Made by a program: the position numbers and the translations under genes. A DNA stretch of 64,000 nt from Escherichia coli (GTDB lineage Bacteria > Pseudomonadota > Gammaproteobacteria > Enterobacterales > Enterobacteriaceae), in assembly GCF_050320075.1 (NCBI RefSeq), contig NZ_CP190018.1, one strand, 5' to 3'. Positions 3,301 through 36,834 of the stretch are shown piece by piece (within the stretch, counting starts at the first letter, position 1; the number at the start of each line of letters is the position of its first letter). The notes beneath the pieces are model-generated. The model did not search any database, was not told the origin of the DNA, and saw nothing but the letters and a program-made list of their open reading frames with translations.

Positions 3301-3523
3301 TGGTGCCGTACTGCGTGTCCGGCCGAAAGCCATGACCGTGGCGGTGATCATTGCGGGTCTGCTGCCAATACTCTGGGGAACCGGTGCAGGTTCAGAAGTC
3401 ATGAGCCGTATCGCGGCACCCATGATTGGTGGGATGATCACGGCTCCGCTGCTGTCCCTGTTCATTATTCCTGCCGCCTACAAATTAATCTGGCTGCGCA
3501 GACATAAAAAAAGCGTGTCCTGA
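377..3523 (+). CDS. silA: Heavy-metal (Ag+/Cu+) RND efflux pump, CusA/SilA family
   Basis: 1048-aa ORF of typical RND length and 12-TM architecture, N-terminus [16 protein letters not shown]; sits between adaptor gene and silG/silP. Confidence 0.92.
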
Positions 3524-25199: not shown

Positions 25200-26323
25200 T
25201 GCGCCATTTACGCAATATTTTTAATCTGGGTATCAAAGAGTTGCGCAGTTTGCTCGGTGATAAAGCGATGCTGACGCTGATTGTCTTCTCGTTTACGGTG
25301 TCGGTGTATTCGTCAGCGACCGTTACGCCAGGATCGTTGAACCTCGCGCCGATCGCCATTGCCGATATGGATCAATCGCAGTTATCGAACAGGATCGTTA
25401 ACAGCTTCTATCGCCCGTGGTTTTTGCCACCGGAGATGATCACCGCCGATGAGATGGATGCCGGGCTGGACGCCGGACGCTATACCTTCGCGATAAATAT
25501 TCCGCCTAATTTTCAGCGTGATGTCCTCGCCGGACGCCAGCCAGATATTCAGGTGAACGTCGATGCCACGCGCATGAGCCAGGCATTTACCGGCAATGGG
25601 TATATCCAGAATATTATCAACGGTGAAGTGAACAGCTTTGTCGCGCGCTACCGTGATAATAGCGAACCGTTGGTATCGCTGGAAACCCGGATGCGCTTTA
25701 ACCCGAACCTCGATCCCGCGTGGTTTGGCGGGGTGATGGCGATCATCAACAACATTACTATGCTGGCGATTGTATTGACCGGATCGGCGCTGATCCGCGA
25801 GCGTGAACACGGCACGGTGGAACACTTACTGGTGATGCCGATAACGCCGTTTGAGATCATGATGGCGAAGATCTGGTCGATGGGGCTGGTGGTGCTGGTG
25901 GTATCGGGATTATCGCTGGTGCTGATGGTAAAAGGCGTGCTGGGCGTACCGATTGAAGGCTCGATCCCGCTGTTTATGCTGGGCGTGGCGCTCAGTCTGT
26001 TTGCCACCACGTCAATCGGCATTTTTATGGGGACGATAGCGCGTTCAATGCCGCAACTGGGGCTGCTGGTGATTCTGGTGCTGCTGCCGCTGCAAATGCT
26101 TTCCGGTGGATCCACGCCGCGCGAAAGTATGCCGCAGATGGTGCAGGACATTATGCTGACCATGCCGACGACACACTTTGTTAGCCTCGCGCAGGCCATC
26201 CTCTACCGGGGTGCCGGATTCGAAATCGTCTGGCCGCAGTTCCTGACGCTGATGGCAATTGGCGGCGCGTTTTTCACCATCGCACTGCTGCGATTTAGGA
26301 AGACGATTGGGACAATGGCGTAA
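25196..26323 (+). CDS. yhhJ: ABC-2 family transporter permease YhhJ
   Basis: Start MMRHLRNIF overlaps the rbbA stop; polytopic membrane protein. Confidence 0.88.
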
Positions 26324-26424
26324 TTACAGTTGCCCGATGCGTAAGCTTATAGGGTCTACGCATTGGTGCAATTTATTGAATTTTAGTTTTTTTTAGGCCG
26401 GATAAGGCGTTTATGAACTGACCA

Positions 26425-26911
<487 letters not shown>

Positions 26912-27240
26912 TTTGTTCTCCTTAATTATGTAAGGAGTATTTGATCATGTATAAGCAATGGAAAACAGCTTTAGGTAATAAGGAATATCTCAATTATTGA
27001 ATATTTAGTGCGAATTATTTAGTACAAAAAAGCAGCGTTGCGTGATCTTTCCCTGCCCTTTATTCATAAACACATGGATATGGTGATCAACGGTGGTCTG
27101 ATGGAGGCGCAGAGCCTGAGTAATCATGACTGAATTTCAGCCTTCAGAAGCCAGAAAAATGGCTTTAATACAATCGCAGCCCCGCTTTTCACAACATTAT
27201 GCTTATAATATGAAAAATATCTTGCCTTGCATCTTTGTGC

Positions 27241-27720
27241 CTACGGCATTGGATGATCTTTCCCTAACCTTATAGTTTCTTTTAGCCTTTCAAGCCTTAG
27301 CAATTCAACCTCGGCTTTAATATAGCCATGTGAGGCAGCCATTTTCAGCCAATTAATTGCATTATCTAAATTATAATATTTTAAATAGGAATCATCCTCC
27401 TCTGAGGATAGAATCATAGCATAATTATATTGCGCTATGATATTTCCTTGAGATGCAGACCTTGCCAGATATTTAATTTGCTTGGGTATATTAAAGCAAA
27501 CATATGTATAATATTGATGTAATCGATATGACGCATCACCATCCCCGCCCTCAGATTTAATATCAAGTTCATATCTTTGATTTTCACTTAAATTAAACGA
27601 TTCAGATGTTGAGCTTATTTCAATGTTATGGAGCTTAATAGGGGGGGGGATTTCACCTCCATATGAACAACAAGAGAAAAAGAAAACATTTGCAATCAGA
27701 ATAAATAAAAAGCACTTCAT
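27241..27720 (-). CDS. Secreted Sel1/TPR-like repeat protein; candidate immunity protein for the adjacent orphan Rhs tip
   Basis: Signal peptide (MKCFLFILIANVFFFSCC), Sel1-like repeat signatures, immediately downstream of the orphan tip; AT-rich. Confidence 0.55.
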   Translation of the reverse strand: MKCFLFILIANVFFFSCCSYGGEIPPPIKLHNIEISSTSESFNLSENQRYELDIKSEGGDGDASYRLHQYYTYVCFNIPKQIKYLARSASQGNIIAQYNYAMILSSEEDDSYLKYYNLDNAINWLKMAASHGYIKAEVELLRLERLKETIRLGKDHPMP

Positions 27721-27733
27721 GTTGCCACCTTTG

Positions 27734-28725
27734 TTATTTTATATCACTTGGTCTCATAACTTTGCCAGGAGTGGAAGAAATGGGTTGACCTGAAGGTCCA
27801 AACGTTATCCAGCGGCCCATATTATTACCAGTTATGACATTATTACTTGTGTCAATTGCCGAGATATTATCCGTAAGTCCTGTTTGGATCGTATTAAAAA
27901 GAGGAGTATTATTATCCCACGCCATCCATACTTGCCATTGTGTATCAGCTCCAGTGACATTTGCATGAAGTGCTCTGGCTAACTTGCTGGCAAAAGATTT
28001 ATCTCCCTCTCTGGCTGTACCACATGAGAATAATCAAACAGACATTCCCTTTTTATAGCGTGGATTAGCTCTGATTCTCTTGGCTAATCCCTCAGCAGTT
28101 TCATAGTTTCCATTTTCATCTGTAATAAAACCAGGATATCCATGTCCTCCAATAGTAAAAACGCCAGGAATATTTATTTTATCTGTTGCAGCATGCAGTG
28201 ATACATTTCTGCGTATCCCCTCATCATAGAAATTCATATCAGCTAATCCAAAAGGGTCTATATACTGAACCGGATTCAACGGATACTCATAAAAATTCCA
28301 TCCCCCCTTCAGCCCAATCGAATCCTGAGTGATATACCTCCCCTGCAGCGGGTCATAATAGCGGTGGCGGTTGTAATACAGGCCGGACTCCTCATCATAC
28401 TGCTGACCCGGCAGGCGGATGAGTTGCTGCAGCTGTTGCGGGTTCTCTTCATTCAGCAGGTTGCCCCATTCATCGTATTCTGCGCACCATTCTGTTGCCC
28501 CTTCCGTGCTGATAAGCACCAGCGGCAGGCCGCGATGGTCGCAGTGGTACAGGTGGATTTTTCGCGCCGGCGTGTACACCGGGTCCATCTGGTTTTGCAT
28601 CTGCTTCACCGTCAGGCCGCACGATGCCAGCCAGCGGCGGCTTTCCTCACTCACCCGGTCAGCCAGGATTTCACTTTCCAGCCGGTCGAGCATCTGCACC
28701 GTGCCGGCGGGAATCCCCCACTGTG
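27734..28725 (-). pseudogene. Orphan rhs fragment: last part of the Rhs core plus an unrecognised C-terminal toxin domain, interrupted by one in-frame TGA at 28034-28036
   Basis: 28258-28700 is near-identical to 33108-33550 of the full rhs gene; the tip diverges after the DPxGL-type motif (here YIDPFGL); track ORFs 28034-28699 and 27734-27925 are in the same frame, separated only by TGA. Confidence 0.75.
28258..28700. repeat. Copy 1 of a near-identical direct repeat (about 443 bp), the rhs core 3' segment in the orphan fragment
   Basis: Collinear with 33108-33550 at constant offset 4850 with few mismatches. Confidence 0.85.
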
Positions 28726-28740
28726 CATAGGCAACTCACG

Positions 28741-29583
28741 CTATGAACGCTTCAGCTTATCAATAGCGGAAGTTATAATTTCATTGTCATCAAACTTGTA
28801 CAACATAGTATCTAAAACAGGAAGTAGCGTTTTATCACCTAATTCACCCGCAGCTTCAATGATATCATCATAAACAGTATTTTTTTTTAACTCATCGCAT
28901 AAAACAGATAAAACCCTTTTATCTTTTCTGTAGGAAAGTCCGATTATTGCTTCAATACGGACTTCCTCATTTTTATCCTGAAGCATCTCCACAAAACAAT
29001 CCCTAATATCACTATTATCATATTTATTGATATTTATTGCAAATGCGGCCCAGTTTCTGACATCTCCATTTGGATCTTTTAACAGATTAATCAATAGTGG
29101 AATTGTTGCTTTATCATTGATAACAGAAATAGCAAATGCTGTAGCACGTCTGACATTAGTCGATTTATCAAAAGCAGTAATTTGAGATTGTTCTACTATT
29201 TTAGGTGAATAAATTGGGTTTTTCTTGCATCGCTGAGCCGTTGACTCGATTGCCGTAGCTCGAACGCAAGCGCTCTTATCATTCAATGCCATATTGTTCA
29301 AAATATTAAACACATTATCTTTGCATTTTTTGCAAATTTTTATTTGCCCGAGTATAAATGCTCCGATATCTCTACGGATATAATTTTTATCAGAGCAGAA
29401 CTCAATTGCCAATCTAACAGCGTCTTGACCACCTCTTAACTGTAATACTCTGGCAGATGAAATCCTTTTCAAGGAATTGTGATCATCAAGTAAGCGAAAT
29501 AATTCATCATCATTTAGTTTCTTACATTGATTATATAAACCATACTCTTTACTTGCCTTTCTTTTCTGGTATGTATTTGACAT
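28741..29583 (-). CDS. HEAT-repeat protein (YibA-like), immunity-type gene in the Rhs array
   Basis: Repeated D/N-x-x-VR-x-x-A motifs; GGAGG RBS 6 nt before the ATG at 29583; about 280 aa like the rhsA-linked YibA. Confidence 0.7.
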   Translation of the reverse strand: MSNTYQKRKASKEYGLYNQCKKLNDDELFRLLDDHNSLKRISSARVLQLRGGQDAVRLAIEFCSDKNYIRRDIGAFILGQIKICKKCKDNVFNILNNMALNDKSACVRATAIESTAQRCKKNPIYSPKIVEQSQITAFDKSTNVRRATAFAISVINDKATIPLLINLLKDPNGDVRNWAAFAININKYDNSDIRDCFVEMLQDKNEEVRIEAIIGLSYRKDKRVLSVLCDELKKNTVYDDIIEAAGELGDKTLLPVLDTMLYKFDDNEIITSAIDKLKRS

Positions 29584-29687
29584 TGCAGGAACCTCCATAA
29601 AGACTATCTTTTTCTATCGTTTGACTGTCTGGAGTCCTCCACCTACTCTGCCATCAGCACACACGATGTTTGTTTATCCTTACATAC

Positions 29688-29954
29688 TTATTTTCCGTGG
29701 CCAAAATTTAGAATTCTCCCGTCATTTTTGCCTATTTCTATAATAAAAACCCTACCAGCAATTTGGTCTGATTCAATGGTGCCTTCAACAATCCAACTTG
29801 TTGGTAATTCCATGATTTTGTATGGTTTTTCTTCTTCTGCGGCATCATGCCCATAACGATTTTTAACATACATCTCAGCTAATTCCAATGCTATAGCTTT
29901 ATTTTTTACCAAATTTCTAACGGTGTATTTCCCCTCACATTCATACTTGCGCAT
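29688..29954 (-). CDS. Small cytoplasmic protein paralogous to 31553-31900; immunity-like candidate
   Basis: 88 aa; shares ALEL..Y.K..YG...E.KPY.I.....W.(I/V)EG....G..F.I.I.K.DG pattern with the 115-aa protein. Confidence 0.45.
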   Translation of the reverse strand: MRKYECEGKYTVRNLVKNKAIALELAEMYVKNRYGHDAAEEEKPYKIMELPTSWIVEGTIESDQIAGRVFIIEIGKNDGRILNFGHGK

Positions 29955-30035
29955 TATAATAATATTATTACACTGCGCCCATGTGTTGTATGTAAAAACA
30001 AAGATACAATCACATAGGTTCTGAATAATATTTTC

Positions 30036-30401
30036 TTATACGTTGTCATGTATTTTGCAAACATTAGACAATCCTTTTCCATTTATTATATCTTTCCCAT
30101 GATTATCTATTGCTTTAAAATTTTCACCTATTGACCTTGAATTACTACAATCACTTCCAGTGAAATCTGAGTTATTCAGAATAGCATTCATCAGAGCCGC
30201 ATTGTGAAAGACAGCATTTCTAGTTGATGTATGTTGAATCATTACATTTCTTAAATGAGTTTTTTCAAATTTCGCCCCATCAAGACAATAACCATTGAGG
30301 GTGGCACGATGTAGATTCATCCCGCTAAAATCATATCCAGCAAGAGTGGTACTATCTATCTCAAGAAATTTATTGGTTATTAAAAATGCGATTCTTATCA
30401 T
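30036..30401 (-). CDS. Pentapeptide-repeat protein (about 121 aa)
   Basis: Tandem five-residue repeats of the A(D/N)LxX type; GGAGG RBS 5 nt before the ATG at 30401 (track uses TTG at 30413). Confidence 0.6.
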   Translation of the reverse strand: MIRIAFLITNKFLEIDSTTLAGYDFSGMNLHRATLNGYCLDGAKFEKTHLRNVMIQHTSTRNAVFHNAALMNAILNNSDFTGSDCSNSRSIGENFKAIDNHGKDIINGKGLSNVCKIHDNV

Positions 30402-30439
30402 CTGTTCCTCCAATCATCTAACTCCTGAAAAATTTGAAA

Positions 30440-30600
30440 ACCAGAACCTCGCTTAGGCCTGTGTCCATACTACGTGGGTAGGATTATTCTGCGTACTACG
30501 CTGTTGTCCCTTACGTGCTGATAAGGGCTGGCAGGTTTCCGGCTTGCTTCGTTGAGTTCACTACGCTAAAGCTCCGTGTCCACATAACCCAGCTCGGAGG
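30440..30600 (-). pseudogene. Degenerate rhs core fragment
   Basis: Translation GNLPALIST*GTTA*YAE resembles the core segment [22 protein letters not shown] but carries in-frame stops. Confidence 0.45.
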
Positions 30601-30649
30601 CATGACCTTCTCTGGTTCGTTCCATCTAAAATGTCTATAACTGACATGG

Positions 30650-30970
30650 TTATTCAATTATTTTTTCTTTGAGTTTATTCTCAATCCAGCGGTCTTTATA
30701 CCTGATGAGAATTTGACATTCACCAATATTATCAATGTCACCAACATTTGTGTTTCGAATTTGACCAACAGCAACTATAGTTGATTCAAAACATTCAACA
30801 TTGACTTTATCTGTTATTATTGAAACTATATAATCATCTGGAATGGAGCCATTAGGTATTATATTAAAGAAAGTAACATCGGTAAATACTAAATAACCAT
30901 TTTCTAAGTCTTCATTATTATAAAAATTCCATTCTGTTGTACCATAGGCTATCCTTGAGATTAAATTCAC
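30650..30970 (-). CDS. Small cytoplasmic protein, immunity-like candidate; GTG start overlaps the stop of an upstream 27-codon tip remnant (GTGA)
   Basis: 106-aa AT-rich ORF; 4-bp stop/start overlap with the preceding short ORF, as in toxin-immunity pairs. Confidence 0.4.
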   Translation of the reverse strand: MNLISRIAYGTTEWNFYNNEDLENGYLVFTDVTFFNIIPNGSIPDDYIVSIITDKVNVECFESTIVAVGQIRNTNVGDIDNIGECQILIRYKDRWIENKLKEKIIE

Positions 30971-31092
30971 CTGAATTCTAATTTGTTTGCTCCATAAATC
31001 AAATTCAATTTTTTTATTGGTCGATCACCAAGATATATTCTATCAAACATATTACCCTCTATTCTAAAAATACTCAGGCATTCCACACATTA

Positions 31093-31420
31093 TATCAGCC
31101 TCATCTTGACTGCTTCCCGTTTCCCGATACGGCGGTGCGGGGAGTCATAAAGGTAAGAAATTTCCAGCAGTACGGCGTCCTATTGTTCACGGCGGTAATG
31201 CACCAGCCAGTATTGGCTATCGTAGTGATAACCGTGTAATCTGCCGCCGCATCGCGTATCTAATGTTCATTCTTTTCCATAAACCGTCCGTACACATTGT
31301 GATAGTAAAAATACAATACATCTTCGCTGATGCGGTTATTCTGCTGCATGTGGGAAGCGCCGAATACTGCTCCCGGTATGGCCAGTAATTACTATTTAGT
31401 ACGACGTTAGGGGGAGTCAC
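31093..31420 (-). pseudogene. Degenerate rhs core fragment with stops and frameshifts
   Basis: Translation ...GRLHGYHYDSQYWLVHYRREQ*...YLYDSPHRRIGKRE resembles core [17 protein letters not shown]...[13 protein letters not shown]. Confidence 0.45.
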
Positions 31421-31552
31421 TTAATCTCACAGATACTTCAAGTAACAGATGAAAATCGCTCCTGAAATGAAAAAGAAATTTTTTTGAATGTGTTCCTGTC
31501 AAATCAAGTGGTTTTTTCGTCGATATGTAGAGTCATATTGTACACAAAATAG

Positions 31553-31900
31553 TTATGAAACACACCTTGGTAAAATATTTGAATCGTCTGAACAGTGGAT
31601 TATTTTGTGTATTACATCCAACGCTTGCCCATCTTTTTTCGCTATTAGTATTGTAAAATTTCCTCCTAACGTCTTCGGTTGTTTTCCCTCGATTTTCCAA
31701 CAATTATTGTCATCTGTAATACTATATGGTTTCTGAAATTCTGCTTTTTCTTTCCCGTATATATATTTAATATAAACATATGATAATTCCAAAGCCATTT
31801 CACGACTATTTACTAAAATTTCCACTGAATTTTCTTTTCCAAATACTGAGTGTGATATTGTAAACAATATCATAATAAGTAATATTAGTGAGTTTCTCAT
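31553..31900 (-). CDS. Secreted small protein paralogous to 29688-29954; immunity-like candidate
   Basis: Signal peptide (MRNSLILLIMILFTISHSVFG) and shared motif pattern with the 88-aa protein. Confidence 0.5.
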   Translation of the reverse strand: MRNSLILLIMILFTISHSVFGKENSVEILVNSREMALELSYVYIKYIYGKEKAEFQKPYSITDDNNCWKIEGKQPKTLGGNFTILIAKKDGQALDVIHKIIHCSDDSNILPRCVS

Positions 31901-31912
31901 GCTCTACACCTA

Positions 31913-32047
31913 TCGAATCTCAAAAGTTGTGGGTAAAACATTACATTCAGAATATATGATATTCTTACCATCGGAATCCATTTTTCCAAATCGACCTTCT
32001 GGTGTTCCTGGATACCCATTAAGAACATATTTTTTCGAATAGTTAAT
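31913..32047 (-). pseudogene. Start-less remnant of a toxin C-terminus (about 45 codons)
   Basis: Open frame ...YSKKYVLNGYPGTPEGRFGKMDSDGKNIIYSECNVLPTTFEIR ending 10 nt before the next gene; no start codon. Confidence 0.3.
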
Positions 32048-32068
32048 TTATTTTCTCAGGAAGAGATT

Positions 32069-32638
32069 TTATTTTTCTTCACTACGAAGCAGTTCATGCT
32101 GTACTTTTGTTAAACATTCGTAAGACTCATCTTTGTTCGGGAGATGTGCTGTCATTCGAGCATAAGTTGGCTTCTCATCTTTAAAATATTTAACCATGAT
32201 TGAATTATCAAGGACTGCCAACAACTGAGCTGGATCACTGCTCTTTTTTTGATAGATACCCGCTCTTATATAACTTCTAAACCGATCGCCGAGAAACGCC
32301 GTTTTTTCTGCTGTATTTAGCAACTCCTGCAACGTTCCTTTGGTTGCATGATTTTCATTAAGGCGTAGTGATCCGACGCGAATTAAGAGTCTCGCCCCGC
32401 TTGGTGTGAATTTGTTATTTTTACATATACCAAGTTCTGTTTGCCAATAATACTCACCTATGTCCTCATTCTGATACCATCTCCACATGGTTTTATTATT
32501 TAAGACAGGAAACGCGGAAAAAATAGTACCCTTAGTGAAAATGGTAAAGCAATCTTGATCTTTAGCTTGTGTTTCGCAATTAGCTATAACACCAAAACTA
32601 ACGAATATCATCAGCAAAAAGAACAAAGCTCTTTTCAT
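32069..32638 (-). CDS. Candidate cognate immunity protein (RhsI) for the main Rhs toxin; secreted or lipoprotein
   Basis: Start overlaps the rhs stop by 4 bp; N-terminal signal peptide ([21 protein letters not shown]); AT-rich. Confidence 0.6.
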
Positions 32639-35600
32639 TTTCTTATTCCTCTCGATGTTCTCTGTTTCATTTTAGCTAAAATTTCACCCAAATCATCTAT
32701 CCCTGCTGTTGCTGGCCCATCGGGTTTATTAATGTCTGGGAATAAATAGGGTTCTGCACAAGTATATCCTGGTGGTAATTGAGTTGTTGGCCAAGTTGTC
32801 TGTGGCAGGTAATCACTTGCTGTCTTTGTCTCCATCCCTGGATACTGGGGATCATCCTGCGGCGTACAAGTCAGATTGGGTTTTACCCACTTCCTGCAAT
32901 ACAGTGTGTAATCGTAAGGACTTAATGCTCTGAAGAATGTTTTGAAAACATTAGGCGCACTACTGGCCTGGTCAATAGGATATGGCAGTCTTAATTGTTT
33001 CGCTATGTCTGGCAACTTACTTGGATCGGGCGTAGGCGGTTTGTTGGGTCTCGCTCCATATCCGCCATTATTTAAGTGTCCATATTTAGATGCCAGTCCC
33101 ATTGAATCTATATACTGAACCGGATTTAACGGATACTGATAAAAATTCCATCCCCCCTTCAGTCCAATCGGATCCTGAGTGATATACCGCCCCTGCAGCG
33201 GGTCATAATAGCGGTGGCGGTTGTAATACAGGCCGGACTCCTCATCATACTGCTGACCCGGCAGGCGGATGAGCTGCTGCAGCTGGTGCGGGTTCTCTTC
33301 ATTCAGCAGGTTGCCCCATTCATCGTATTCTGCGCACCATTCTGTTGCCCCTTCCGTGCTGACAAGCGCCAGCGGCAGGCCGCGATGGTCGCAGTGGTAC
33401 AGGTGGATTTTTCGCGCCGGCGTGTACACCGGGTCCATCTGGTTTTGTATCTGCTCCACCGTCAGGCCGCACGATGCCAGCCAGCGGCGGCTTTCCTCAC
33501 TCACCCGGTCAGCCAGGATTTCACTTTCCAGCCGGTCGAGCATCTGCACCAGCACCGGCGGGAACACCACACTGCCACCGTCTTCGCCGCCGGACTGCTG
33601 AAGGGCATCCGCCAGGCTGCGGCGCTGCGTTTTCGCCAGCTCACCGGTGGCGGTTTCAACTCTGATGAGTGGCGTGAAGCTCCCCGGCTGATAAACCGTC
33701 TGGATGCGGGTTCTGTCGTTCTGTATCGTGGTCAGCCGGTCGCCGTCCCAGCCGTACCAGGTCACTTCCGGTTTCCGTGACAGCGACATCCAGCCCGTCA
33801 GGTCCCGTTCACGCCGCCATACCCGTTTTGCCACCCTGCGGCCCAGCGGGTCGTAAAGATAGCGACTTTCGACCAGCGGCTCTGCATATTGTGTCCGCGT
33901 GTAGTGCACCAGCCGGTGCCGGCTGTCGTAATGATACCGGTGAGTCCGCTCATCATCCGTGCGGATAACCCCTTCCGGGATGAGGTCGGTTTTCTCTGTC
34001 AGCCTGCCGTGACGGTCATACCGGTAAAGATAGTGCGCGTCACGGGCGATACGGTTATCCGGCCACATGCTGAGGGTGCTGTCCGGGTGCAGCTCCGGGT
34101 CGGGCAGGCGGTTGCCTGCCGGGTCCGTGGCATACGGGATGCGGATATCCAGGTTCGCTGCCGTGGTGTGGACGCCGGTCAGCCTGCCGGTGTCGCTGTA
34201 GCTGTAACTCCGGGTCTGGCGCGGGCTGCTGATGCGGATGAGTTCGCCGTTGTCGTTCCAGGTGTAATCGCGGTCATACTGCAGGCTGTTCAGGTGCTGG
34301 CTCTGTAACTGCCCGGCAGAGGTGTAAGCGGTGGTGAGTTCATAACGGCCGAAGCTGCGCAGCGTTTCCCGGTGCAGGCGGTCGCGGGTGTACTCCACCA
34401 GCGGTGTGTCGCCGAGTTTCATGCCTGACAGCCAGCCGCTGCCGTAGGTCAGCCATTCCACGGCGGGCAGGCTGTCCGGTATACAGCGGTTCGCCAGTCC
34501 CTGCGCGTTGTAAGCGTGTCTGGTTTCATGCTGCCAGAGCAGTGCTTCCGTCTGCGGGTGATGCACCGTCTGGCGCTCACCGGTCAGGCGGCCTTTCTCA
34601 TCATACCCGTAATGCACCGTCACCCGGTGGCCTTCGCTGAGATGGCTGATGCCTGTCAGCCAGCCGCGTTCGTCATACTGCCACTGCTCTGCCGGTTCAC
34701 CATTCACCGTTCGCTGTGTGATGCGGTCTGCTTCGTCATAGTGCCAGTGGGTGACCAGCCCCTCATCCTCGCTGCGGATAAGTTTGCCGGTCAGGTCGTG
34801 GTGATAACGCTGTGTGCGGCCGTCAAAGCCGGTTTCCTGTATCAGCCGGTCAAGTACATCGTAACGGAAGGTGGTGTGGCTGCCGTTTTCACTGGTCAGG
34901 CGGATGACCCGCCCGGCAGCATCGTATTCCATACTGCGCGTCAGACCGCCCTGCGTGGTACGAACGGGCTTTCCCCACGCATCGTACTGTGTCCCGTTTC
35001 TGCTGCCGTCCGGGGCAATGACGGCGGTCAGGTCACCGGCGGCGTTGTATTCATACCGCGTTTCATGGCCCTGCGTGTCTTTCACCGCAATTAACTGTCC
35101 ACGGCTGTCGTATGCGCGGTACTGACTCAGCCCTTCCTCGCGGTGCACCGCCGTCATCTGACCAAAACGGTCATGGTCATAACGGGTTACATAACCGGAA
35201 CAGTCAGTGACGGTCAGCAACTGACCGTAACGGCTCCATGTCATGGTTTTCCGGCTGCCGGTGGCATCCTCCGTTGCGCAGGGTAAGTCACTGTGTGGAT
35301 TATCATAACGGTAGCGGGTGATATCGCCGTTGTGTGCGGTTTCCTGAATCAGACGGCCGGATTCATCATATTCCCGGCGCAATTCCAGCCCGTCAGGCCC
35401 GGTGGCTGACGTTAACTGGCTGTGGTGGTTATAGTAAAATGCCGATGCCCTGCCATCCGGTGTGGTGATGCGCGTGATGAGTCCCGTCACCACATCCGGG
35501 CTGTACTCAGTCGTCCGGCCTGCGGCATCCGTCTGTGCCTTAAGCCTGCCCACCGCGTCAAACTGACTCTGCGTGACGCTGCCGTCCGCGTGTTCCTTTT

Positions 35601-36834
35601 TCACCACCCGCTTCAGCCCGCCTTCGCCCTGCGTGTGCAGCACTTCACGGCGGTCCAGACTGTCGGTGATGGTGATGCGGTCTTTCTCATACTGATACGT
35701 GTAGCTTAAGCCTGCCGGGTTTAGCTGCTCTGTCACCCGCCCGTCGCTGTCGTAACGGTAACGGATTTCTGGCCGGCCCGCGCGGTGGTGCGCCACCATC
35801 CGGCCCCGGTATTTATCATCGTAAGTAAAGCTGCGCACCTGTTTGCCACTGCGGTCATACACCGCCGCCAGTTCGCCGCGTGGCGTCCAGCCATAGCGCA
35901 CCAGCGGCGCGGCAGGTAAATTCTCCGGGTATTCCGGGTCGTGTGTCAGCCACACGGCAGACAGACGGATACCGTTGTCCCGGCCATATTCCGTGTAGTC
36001 CGGCAGGGTATCAGGAAAAGCGGACGGTTCCGTCCCGCCGGAAGAGGCCTGCTGCCGGGCCTCTTCTGCCCGCTGCGCCTGCGTGGTCAGTACCAGCCGG
36101 AAGTGACGCCCGGCACCATCCGTCACGCCGGTGATTTCGCCGCTGAATTCACCGCCAGCCTCACGGTGAAACGTCTGTGTGCGCCCGAAGCGGTCCACCA
36201 GCCCGGTCAGTACCCGGTACGGCGGCAGCGGCGCGGGCAGCACCTCATCCGCTTCCGGCACCCGCTCACACCAGCCGAGCAGCCACCACGGCCCCTGCGG
36301 ACTGTTTGTCGCCAGATAACGATGCGGACTTAAGCGGAGTTCTTCCGGCAGCGCCTGCCAGAGTGCGGTCAGCCGGTGACCTTCATCCAGTTTCAGGACA
36401 CCGCCACGCACCAGCCAGAGTGACTCGCTGCGGCTGTAACCGTCCTCACCGGGAAACAGGTGCTCAAAATACAGGCTCCTGCCGCCGTTATCACTGAGTA
36501 TCAGTGTGTTATCGCGCAGCTGTAGGCGGATATCCGCAGGCATTTTCCAGCCGGGGCCGAGGCTCCCCACCGGCGCGGGCGTTTTTGTCCGGTAACTGCT
36601 GTAGGTGCGGGAGAGGATGAACGGCAGCGGGCCGGGCAGGGCAAGGTCGGTTTCGCCGGGAAGGACCTTCGCGCCGAGCAGCGGATTGACCGGATGGCCG
36701 GACGTCACCCCGCCGGGGCACACCGAACAGGCCACGCCGGTGGGGGCACCAATACGTACCCCGGCAGAACCCTGAACAATGCTACCGCCATACTGCGTCA
36801 TGTCGCCCTGACGCGCCGCCGGTTTTCCGCTCAT
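32635..36834 (-). CDS. rhsB: Rhs family protein (RhsB-like) with PAAR-motif N-terminus, YD-repeat core and an unrecognised polymorphic C-terminal toxin domain (about 32638-33107)
   Basis: 1399 aa; N-terminus [11 protein letters not shown]; numerous YD repeats; core ends at a DPxGL-type motif (YIDSMGL) after which sequence diverges from the orphan copy. Confidence 0.93.
33108..33550. repeat. Copy 2 of the direct repeat (within the full-length rhs gene)
   Basis: See 28258-28700. Confidence 0.85.

Follow-up and report, generated by a model that had tools for sequence, protein, structure and literature searches.

Displaced Rhs toxin-immunity cassettes: a probable graveyard at the Escherichia coli rhsB locus

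The region between positions 28741 and 32047 of the analysed DNA (a stretch of 64,000 nucleotides from Escherichia coli, referred to here as the window) is, with a probability of about 85%, a graveyard of displaced Rhs toxin-immunity cassettes at the rhsB locus. As originally predicted, five small AT-rich genes and two degenerate rhs core fragments are all present on its minus strand, and the GC content of the region is 0.351, compared with 0.518 in the window as a whole and 0.618 in the rhs core. They are accompanied by toxin tails that are indeed start-less, but number four rather than two (32047..31913, 31120..31067, 30122..30039, and 29636..29607). Each displaced toxin is cut to its last 10-45 codons and the adjacent immunity-type genes retain 58-100% of their length, so that the toxins are far more degraded than the immunity genes. 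No complete alternative tip follows the core fragments in 28741-32047, intact tips being 130-185 aa long. Every immunity-type gene except a pentapeptide fragment lies directly 3' of the tail of the toxin that neighbors it at intact loci.

Judged from its sequence, the array is in keeping with the known model of C-terminal displacement (Jackson 2009, PMC2935791). New cassettes consisting of a core end, a tip and an immunity gene would have recombined onto the live rhs gene, and earlier cassettes would have been shifted downstream of it. Internal deletions and one IS3-associated deletion would then have stripped the cores and the catalytic parts of the toxins. The immunity proteins of these families would bind and neutralise the cognate toxin domain delivered by a neighboring cell. 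The predicted repeated tip displacement is supported by former toxin-immunity cassettes 3' of the live gene. It is not the sole process, since an IS3-associated deletion is also present and the array is a mosaic, with blocks that occur at rhsC (BL21, O157) and rhsA (K-12) in other strains.

The live gene and its surroundings

In the chromosome, the site lies between nikR and yhhJ and corresponds to the E. coli rhsB locus. This is an ordinary stretch of rhsB, for which hundreds of RefSeq genomes already carry an annotation. The array is carried by 272 of the 5,426 complete E. coli genomes, with 100% identity over 28741-32047 in the records listed. It lies directly 3' of the full-length live rhs gene and on the same strand, from 32047 downward. 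This gene (minus strand, 36834..32635) encodes 1399 aa with a YbfO-type C-terminal tip, for which a Pfam search gave no family match. Its presumed cognate immunity gene, of ybfC type (minus strand, 32069..32638), has an ATG overlapping the rhs stop codon (ATGA), and encodes 189 aa with a signal-peptide-like N-terminus and a dN/dS of 0.24-0.27.

On the other side of the array is found a yibJ-like orphan rhs core end with its tip (minus strand, 27734..28711), interrupted by an in-frame TGA at 28036..28034. Its part 28711..28257 shows 92% protein identity to the main core end, and the re-attachment of orphan cassettes to a main rhs gene through recombination between core repeats is documented for Salmonella orphan rhs (PMC3967940). 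It is nevertheless extremely unlikely that the array is a toxin-switching reservoir of this kind: the tails in 28741-32047 hold no toxin domain to re-attach, the core scraps are short (44-240 nt) and degenerate, and the sole downstream orphan tip is the one with the in-frame stop.

Most of the small proteins had been considered not assignable to characterised families. The profile searches find Imm-NTF2-2 twice, YibA/Imm-HEAT, and DUF6258, the fifth protein being a pentapeptide-repeat fragment. Pfam and NCBIfam thereby place four of the five, three of them in published polymorphic-toxin immunity families (PMC3482391), and in the published pairings Imm-NTF2-2 is the partner of Tox-JAB-2, and Imm-HEAT that of Ntox34 (PMC3482391). 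No useful NCBIfam match was obtained for YbfC or the 115-, 106-, 88-, and 63-aa ORFs. The families assigned, together with the exclusive rhs-locus context, speak against the small ORFs being housekeeping genes, a reading that was rejected for this reason. Comparison with rhs loci of other strains also located intact toxin partners (in the E. coli locus L023, K-12 rhsB, K-12 rhsA, and Salmonella/Lelliottia).

Four cassettes in order from the live gene

Sequence comparison resolves the array into four cassettes, in the first of which a Tox-JAB-2 tail precedes an Imm-NTF2-2 gene. The tail (minus strand, 31909..32047) comprises the last 45 codons and stop of a Tox-JAB-2/DUF4329 Rhs toxin, with no start codon. 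It is 93% identical to an orphan tip of E. albertii (E = 3e-27), and nearly the same as the 45 C-terminal residues of the intact E. coli Rhs-DUF4329 toxin of L023, which is followed by a 100-aa NTF2 gene. In all of the 847 complete genomes carrying this tail, it is truncated at one identical point. The gene behind it (minus strand, 31553..31900) is a 115-aa ORF with a signal-peptide-like N-terminus and a match to Pfam PF15631 (E = 1.1e-17). A 2-nt deletion between 31611 and 31610, near its 3' end, has put 17 other residues in place of the 2 that end the intact 100-aa form. Non-canonical forms dominate the lengths of NTF2 homologs in the database, with 115 aa (455 members), 91 aa (238), and 75 aa (316) against 100 aa (2 + 27), and copies elsewhere hold independent lesions, such as the BL21 copy without ATG or the O157 copy with a nonsense codon. 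The orphan NTF2 gene is present in 847 of the 5,426 complete E. coli genomes, and the intact cognate tip in none. The 115-aa protein, with its domain whole and its C-terminus altered, may still work against Tox-JAB-2.

The second cassette consists of a core scrap and an unclassified tip tail, followed by a DUF6258 gene. The scrap (minus strand, 31117..31358) corresponds approximately to residues 923-1004 of the main Rhs protein and holds an in-frame stop and a frameshift; it is recovered by tblastn (E = 7e-11 / 4e-12) as well as by blastn. The tail (minus strand, 31064..31120; last 18 codons and stop) shares 17 of 18 residues with an orphan Rhs tip from Salmonella enterica (E = 1e-7). The intact form has the motifs DTHT...NAYRLNPxGH...TPHAHAH, and in S. 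enterica, S. bongori, and Lelliottia such tips precede DUF6258 by 15 nt. A Pfam search with the Salmonella tip partnering DUF6258 found no family.

The DUF6258 gene itself (minus strand, 30650..31050) has 133 codons when intact, and its frame is broken by a 1-nt deletion at codon 12 that adjoins an A7 run (31015..31009). A frameshift at the GTG/TGA overlap (codon 27) was also considered, and rejected by the alignment with E. albertii and Salmonella DNA, which puts it at codon 12. Once repaired, the gene aligns over 100% of its length with 133-aa homologs. The 106-aa ORF (GTG 30970..30650) is only its downstream part; its match to Pfam DUF6258 (PF19772; E = 1.9e-15) spans no more than positions 33-103 of the 136 in the model and leaves part of the domain uncovered. 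Since the invariant N-terminal motif YLGDR is encoded before the frameshift, this ORF lacks it. The O157 copy has a nonsense codon, and the pairwise dN/dS of the DUF6258 ORF is 0.21-0.44, from small counts.

A fold search against the PDB with a confident predicted model of DUF6258 (pLDDT 85.6, all-beta) returned only a weak match, to the uncharacterised Neisseria gonorrhoeae protein 5v77 (E = 0.014, TM 0.51-0.62), which allows no functional inference, and the literature searched contained no paper on DUF6258. In several genera the DUF6258 gene keeps its place immediately behind a toxin tip, which provides context evidence that DUF6258 may be an Rhs immunity family with an unclassified toxin tip as partner, a role that is proposed here rather than established.

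The third cassette ends in a yhhH-type Imm-NTF2-2 gene, preceded by a core scrap, an IS3 end, and a fragment of a pentapeptide gene that is joined to a second Tox-JAB-2 tail. The scrap (minus strand, 30485..30528; approximately main Rhs residues 1156-1170) is 82% identical to core nucleotides 3466-3509 (E = 5e-7) and breaks off at an IS3-family element, of which the right terminal end is present (30417..30484, without assigned strand; 62-68 nt, 88-95% identity to IS3 copies). This end is the junction of block 1 and block 2, and its segment 30484..30423 marks an IS-associated deletion. The 5' fragment of the pentapeptide-repeat gene (minus strand, 30123..30401) retains about 97 of 165 codons and a strong GGAGG ribosome-binding site. 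Its ORF (30401/30413..30036) matches Pentapeptide_4 in Pfam (E = 1e-7; families PF13599/PF00805) and stays below all NCBIfam curated cut-offs (30 bits vs 125). The intact form is found only in Salmonella salamae Rhs arrays. Instead of the free-standing pentapeptide-repeat gene that was predicted, the ORF is a truncated chimera of 121 aa, in which 41% of the protein is gone and the end derives from a toxin, namely the last 28 codons and stop of a K-12 RhsB-type DUF4329 tip fused in frame (minus strand, 30036..30122; 71% identity, E = 1.5e-11). The ORF was also considered as a toxin tip, a candidate discarded in view of the alignment of its first 97 codons, starting at residue 1, to a Salmonella protein of 165 aa that is free-standing.

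The yhhH-type gene (minus strand, 29688..30064) has about 89-92% nucleotide identity to K-12 yhhH, which is annotated with PF15631 and follows rhsB as an intact pair. Gaps visible in the alignment show that the signal-peptide region has lost 4 nt (~29996) and 3 nt (~29966), which shifts the frame, and PGAP labels the gene as "frameshifted". The 88-aa ORF (29954..29688) is the part 3' of the frameshift, and its protein is 38% identical to the 115-aa one (E = 1e-14). The signal peptide present in every intact family member compared is lost from it, so what had been described as a paralog without signal peptide is the product of the 4-nt deletion. Both Imm-NTF2-2 copies lie directly 3' of DUF4329 tails, as in the intact pairs of L023, K-12 rhsB, and Salmonella (L014-L016), and neither is an undamaged full-length CDS. 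The pairwise dN/dS of the yhhH-type ORF is 0.23, again from small counts; values below 1 for this and the DUF6258 ORF imply that the lesions are recent or that some constraint remains. Pseudogene status is most likely for DUF6258, the yhhH-type gene, and the pentapeptide fragment.

The fourth cassette is formed by an Ntox34 tail and yibA. The tail (minus strand, 29604..29636), of K-12 RhsA type, amounts to the last ~10 codons (DSRQSNDRKR) and stop and is collinear with the 3' end of K-12 rhsA from 29635; the K-12 RhsA-CT matches Ntox34 with E = 1.3e-43. The yibA gene (minus strand, 28741..29583; PGAP start 29583) encodes 280 aa of HEAT repeats of the Imm-HEAT family, and is the only undamaged gene of the array. 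It passes the NCBIfam PRK09687 equivalog cut-off (465.7 bits vs 275) and is 99.6% identical to K-12 yibA, with 3 substitutions, in flanks that are ~95% identical. In K-12, rhsA (Ntox34) and yibA form an intact pair, and a passage of PMC3150448 citing Vlazny & Hill 1995 reports that yibA neutralises RhsA-CT. Cognate toxins were searched for in the window and at the rhsA locus of one proxy genome with an identical array, where a different tip is found and yibA is absent. YibA is thus without a cognate tip at both loci, in agreement with the prediction of immunity against toxins that the strain no longer makes.

Damage, rescue, and expression

Four of the five small genes have disabling or suspicious lesions. 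The claim that toxins decay and immunity genes persist therefore holds for the stronger degradation of the toxins, and fails for the immunity-type genes other than yibA. Ribosome-binding sites of their own are found at the original starts (AGGTG/ATG 31900, GAGGG/ATG 31050, GGAGG/ATG 30401, and GGAGG/ATG 29583); contrary to expectation, the GTG of the 106-aa ORF and the ATG of the 88-aa ORF lack them and are internal restarts 3' of frameshifts. Each of these restart codons shares nucleotides with the stop codon of the piece before it (GTGA, TAATG), and the long downstream ORFs are still open, an arrangement in which coupled re-initiation may occur. A scan of 27200-32700 for promoters and terminators gave 21 promoter-like sites against 20.3 expected, no excess and too close to expectation to be informative, and an Rfam scan of 26300-33300 gave no RNA family.

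It is very unlikely that all five small genes are expressed as a working orphan-immunity repertoire against the toxins of other strains. The ORFs are open and co-oriented, the four original starts have Shine-Dalgarno sequences, several ORFs have dN/dS < 1, orphan immunity is a documented phenomenon, and the listed records among the 272 carrier genomes are 100% identical. This identity, however, suggests recent shared ancestry and is no evidence of selection. Moreover, the 106-aa ORF has neither YLGDR nor a ribosome-binding site, the pentapeptide and 88-aa ORFs are incomplete as described above, copies in other lineages hold independent nonsense and start-loss mutations, and the JAB-2 tip cognate to the 115-aa protein is intact in 0 of 5,426 complete genomes.

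The opposite alternative, on balance unlikely, is a completely inert fossil kept by linkage to the live rhs gene, in which nothing is expressed or useful, yibA and the 115-aa NTF2 gene included. The promoter count, the absence of a live JAB-2 cognate toxin from all complete E. coli genomes, the wide decay of related copies, and the reduction of the K-12 yibA copy at the same locus to the pseudogene yrhC would all agree with it. It is harder to reconcile with a yibA intact across 280 codons, more conserved than its flanks, and with E. albertii, which keeps intact DUF6258 and NTF2 genes beside dead toxins, an argument that orphans of this kind can be kept; the live rhs-ybfC operon could also plausibly supply read-through transcripts.

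A partial orphan-immunity shield appears quite improbable. Here YibA and the 115-aa NTF2 protein would act against Ntox34 and Tox-JAB-2 attackers and there would be low-level rescue of the single-lesion genes, for DUF6258 via slippage at the A7 run or re-initiation at the overlapping GTG, and for the YhhH fragment through coupled re-initiation. DUF6258 and the TPHAHAH tip would form an undescribed toxin-immunity pair. Under the preferred reading of a graveyard, the array would be at best a two-member orphan-immunity set (YibA against Ntox34, and the 115-aa NTF2 protein) within decaying DNA.

Relation to known rhs loci and orphan immunity

The array resembles the dissociated rhs tip arrays (Jackson et al. 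2009, PMC2935791; orphan rhs-CT/rhsI, Poole et al. 2011, PMC3150448; Koskiniemi et al. 2014, PMC3967940) in its same-strand site directly 3' of a full-length rhs gene, its combination of GC-rich core fragments, AT-rich tips, and small downstream ORFs, and its blocks common to other rhs loci. In contrast to them, its tips are tails of 10-45 codons rather than whole silent orphans, and one junction is an IS3 end instead of a core-core recombination joint.

The K-12 rhsB locus (rhsB-yhhH-yrhC-yhhI) occupies the same chromosomal site and shares the yhhH-to-yibA junction, although its yibA has decayed to yrhC. The window differs in its live tip, which is YbfO-type and not DUF4329, in its frameshifted yhhH and intact yibA, and in an extra inserted NTF2/DUF6258 block, as found at rhsC of BL21 and O157. 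The yibA-yibJ block is 95% identical to that of the K-12 rhsA locus (rhsA-yibA-yibJ-yibG), and the tip-ybfC block 96% identical to that of the K-12 rhsC locus (ybfO-ybfC). Immunity genes that outlast a replaced effector are also described in passages on the Vibrio cholerae T6SS immunity arrays generated by sequential effector displacement (PMC5361080) and on Serratia Rhs-locus orphan immunity (PMC10539506); compared with the cases in those passages, most of the left-behind immunity genes in the window are damaged.

The locus represents textbook rhs tip displacement followed by decay, and its significance is modest: a base-level case of displaced toxins deleted to short 3' tails, with neighboring immunity genes decaying more slowly. 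It also serves as a warning that open ORFs in such arrays can be misleading: among the five "genes" here, two amount to restart fragments of frameshifted genes, and a third is a chimera of immunity and toxin sequence.

Content and origin of the array

The window spans the E. coli rhsB locus, where everything relevant lies on the minus strand in the order nikR, full-length rhs, the interval 28741-32047, an ISAs1/H-repeat remnant, and yhhJ-rbbA-yhiI. The original prediction placed at least five small genes and two degenerate rhs core fragments in this interval. All five open reading frames (ORFs) are present and far from chance, as their family and profile matches indicate: yibA matches NCBIfam PRK09687 (465.7 bits, cut-off 275), the 115-aa ORF Pfam Imm-NTF2-2 (E = 1.1e-17), the 106-aa ORF Pfam DUF6258 (E = 1.9e-15), and the 125-aa ORF pentapeptide repeats (E = 1e-7), and the 88-aa ORF encodes a paralog of the 115-aa protein (38% identity, E = 1e-14). 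Both core fragments are also real. The one at 31358..31117 (minus strand) corresponds approximately to core residues 923-1004 and contains a stop codon and a frameshift, and the one at 30528..30485 (minus strand) shows core homology. The GC content of the interval is 0.351, versus 0.618 for the rhs core and 0.518 for the whole window.

Arrays of this kind are well documented, and this particular sequence is a common one that already carries annotation. The 3,307-bp interval is found in 272 of 5,426 complete E. coli genomes, with 100% identity among the 30 records listed. In CFSAN061763, which carries an identical array, PGAP labels an NTF2 fold immunity protein, a DUF6258 family protein, and yibA, together with three pseudogenes (two partial pentapeptide-repeat genes and one frameshifted NTF2 fold immunity gene). 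In many listed array-bearing genomes (records H1-H21) the match is not a single 3,307-bp segment but covers 4,643 bp in two pieces, with an IS2/IS3-family transposase annotated inside, so another IS has inserted into the array of those strains. On the 3' side of the array, the PGAP annotation of the identical strain shows a scrap of an IS630-family element and a truncated ISAs1/H-repeat transposase within 26478..27175. A promoter scan of 27200-32700 stayed at chance level, and an Rfam scan of 26300-33300 found no RNA family.

Alignments portray the interval as a mosaic. In BL21 and O157, the rhsC locus is the collinear counterpart (95%) of 33300..30485, in the order tip, ybfC, tail, NTF2 gene, core scrap, DUF6258 gene, core scrap. 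Further along, 30122..29600 matches the K-12 rhsB-yhhH-yrhC stretch, and 29635..28140 the 3' end of K-12 rhsA followed by yibA and yibJ. Between the rhsC-like and the rhsB-like blocks, positions 30484..30423 form the right terminus of an IS3-family element, and it is therefore proposed that IS-associated deletion, besides tip displacement, shaped the array. The anatomy is consistent with the model of C-terminal displacement proposed by Jackson et al. 2009 (PMC2935791), and the repeated tip displacement first suggested would be one process, but not the only one. Cassettes would have been displaced from the C-terminus of the live rhs gene and would then have undergone deletional decay.

Toxin tails and their intact counterparts

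Start-less tip remnants are indeed present, but they number four rather than the two first reported, and each of these toxin 3' tails has an immunity-type gene directly downstream. Comparison with Rhs loci of other strains showed intact toxin partners in E. coli, Salmonella, and Lelliottia. Tail 1 (32047..31913, minus strand) comprises the last 45 codons of a Tox-JAB-2/DUF4329 Rhs tip; it shares 93% identity with an orphan tip of E. albertii (E = 3e-27) and is almost the same sequence as the one that ends an intact Rhs-DUF4329 toxin of E. coli (locus L023), where an intact 100-aa Imm-NTF2-2 gene starts 9 nt after the toxin. Tail 3 (30122..30039, minus strand) consists of the 28 final codons of a DUF4329 tip of the K-12 RhsB type, and the DNA remains collinear with K-12 onward through yhhH. 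Tail 4 (29636..29607, minus strand), with yibA downstream, reads DSRQSNDRKR*, the sequence that closes the K-12 RhsA tip; that tip itself is Ntox34 (E = 1.3e-43). These pairings agree with the published ones of Tox-JAB-2 with Imm-NTF2-2 and Ntox34 with Imm-HEAT (Zhang et al. 2012, PMC3482391). Neutralization of the RhsA C-terminus by yibA is credited to Vlazny and Hill 1995 in the passage of Poole et al. 2011 (PMC3150448) citing that work.

What is new here is limited to two by-products. The first concerns tail 2 (31120..31067, minus strand), 18 codons of an unclassified Rhs tip end with 17/18 residues matching an intact counterpart. In Salmonella enterica, S. bongori, and Lelliottia the counterpart sits 15 nt 5' of DUF6258, whose gene is intact there (133 aa). 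This tip is a C-terminal Rhs domain of ~170 aa with conserved DTHT, NAYRLNPxGH, and TPHAHAH motifs (comparison loci L011 5294-6985, L021 4858-5985, and L019 1-1116). It matched no family in a Pfam search, and in the loci compared it always stands 15 nt 5' of DUF6258. The two look like an undescribed toxin-immunity pair, and this genomic context suggests a role for DUF6258 as an Rhs immunity family, which no paper in the literature searched mentions. The second by-product is a rare pentapeptide-repeat protein found only in Rhs arrays. The first ~97 codons of the pentapeptide ORF match, from residue 1 and at 65% identity, a free-standing 165-aa homolog found only in Rhs arrays of Salmonella salamae. 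The intact Salmonella gene, like the array, is flanked by a broken IS630-family element.

Decay of the immunity-type genes

Set against intact homologs, most of the array's immunity genes are damaged. The 115-aa NTF2 gene lacks 2 nt between 31611 and 31610: where the intact protein has 100 aa and ends in DVIHTK, the window version has 17 unrelated residues in place of the last two, with the domain left whole. The DUF6258 gene has lost 1 nt in codon 12, adjoining an A7 run, a deletion common to BL21 and O157 and absent in E. albertii and Salmonella; restoring one base yields an uninterrupted 133-aa protein that aligns end to end with intact homologs. The 106-aa ORF has a GTG start without a Shine-Dalgarno sequence and lacks the invariant YLGDR motif. 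A single base at 30970..30967, GTG in the window lineage versus GTT in BL21 and O157, creates both the TGA closing a 27-codon leader ORF and the overlapping GTG opening the 106-aa ORF, making coupled re-initiation conceivable. The paralogy of the two small proteins stands, and the missing signal peptide of one is explained by frameshift, since the 88-aa ORF represents only the downstream portion of a yhhH-type gene with 4-nt and 3-nt deletions in its signal-peptide region. The pentapeptide ORF is a chimera, fused in frame to tail 3. Only yibA (28741..29583; 280 codons) is intact. Its identity to K-12 yibA is 99.6% (two synonymous changes and one non-synonymous change), whereas the block around it reaches only ~95% against the K-12 rhsA locus, which suggests strong constraint or recent exchange of yibA alone.

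The decay extends to other lineages, where the lesions differ. BL21 has lost the NTF2 start codon, O157 carries a nonsense codon in NTF2 and another in DUF6258, and non-canonical lengths dominate among database homologs; E. albertii keeps whole copies of the NTF2 gene (100 aa) and DUF6258 (133 aa) next to its dead toxins. The expected asymmetry between decaying toxins and persisting immunity genes is seen in the length kept (~8-27% of tips versus 58-100% of immunity-type genes), but persistence proper applies only to yibA. The orphan NTF2 block occurs in 847 of 5,426 complete genomes, with the toxin always cut at the same position, and a full cognate tip in none of the 5,426 at megablast sensitivity. 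Pairwise dN/dS values, each with few substitutions behind it, are 0.24-0.27 for ybfC, 0.23 for the yhhH-type ORF, 0.21-0.44 for the DUF6258 ORF, and, for NTF2, ~1.0-1.25 against other E. coli copies and 0.12 against the intact E. albertii gene. The 100 nt of non-coding DNA at 31470..31371, which separate the NTF2 gene from the core fragment, do not differ among the window, BL21, and O157, and the adjoining coding DNA differs by 2-9%; this identity may be due to chance (roughly 2% expected).

Possible remaining function and neighboring genes

In CFSAN061763 the rhsA locus has no yibA and carries a different tip, accompanied by an Imm57-type gene, and thus YibA has no cognate Ntox34 tip beside it at the array or at that rhsA locus. 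This agrees with the proposed immunity against toxins no longer made, but three members of the repertoire read as pseudogenes: in our reading, no more than two proteins, YibA and the 115-aa NTF2 protein, would still be able to neutralize incoming toxins.

A signal-peptide-like hydrophobic start is found in every intact Imm-NTF2-2 protein compared (K-12 YhhH, E. albertii, L023, and the Salmonella copies), in the 115-aa ORF, and in YbfC, the presumed partner of the live tip. The observation covers 31900..31840 and 32638..32570 in the window and the comparison loci L006 (4900-5283), L009 (6148-6450), and L016 (729-1082). Imm-NTF2-2 would therefore be periplasmic, and so would its Tox-JAB-2/DUF4329 partner, in contrast with the nuclease or RNase activity that the literature predicts for DUF4329 (PMC3482391, PMC10469887).

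The toxin made by the window strain is the uncharacterized YbfO-type tip of the main Rhs protein (32638..33097), which had no match in Pfam, nor did its partner YbfC in NCBIfam. On the other side, the yibJ-like orphan tip bounding the array (28257..27737) has an in-frame TGA at 28036..28034, annotated by PGAP as an internal stop, and is thus itself a pseudogene. It is followed by a SEL1-like gene (27720..27241) with a signal-peptide-like N-terminus.
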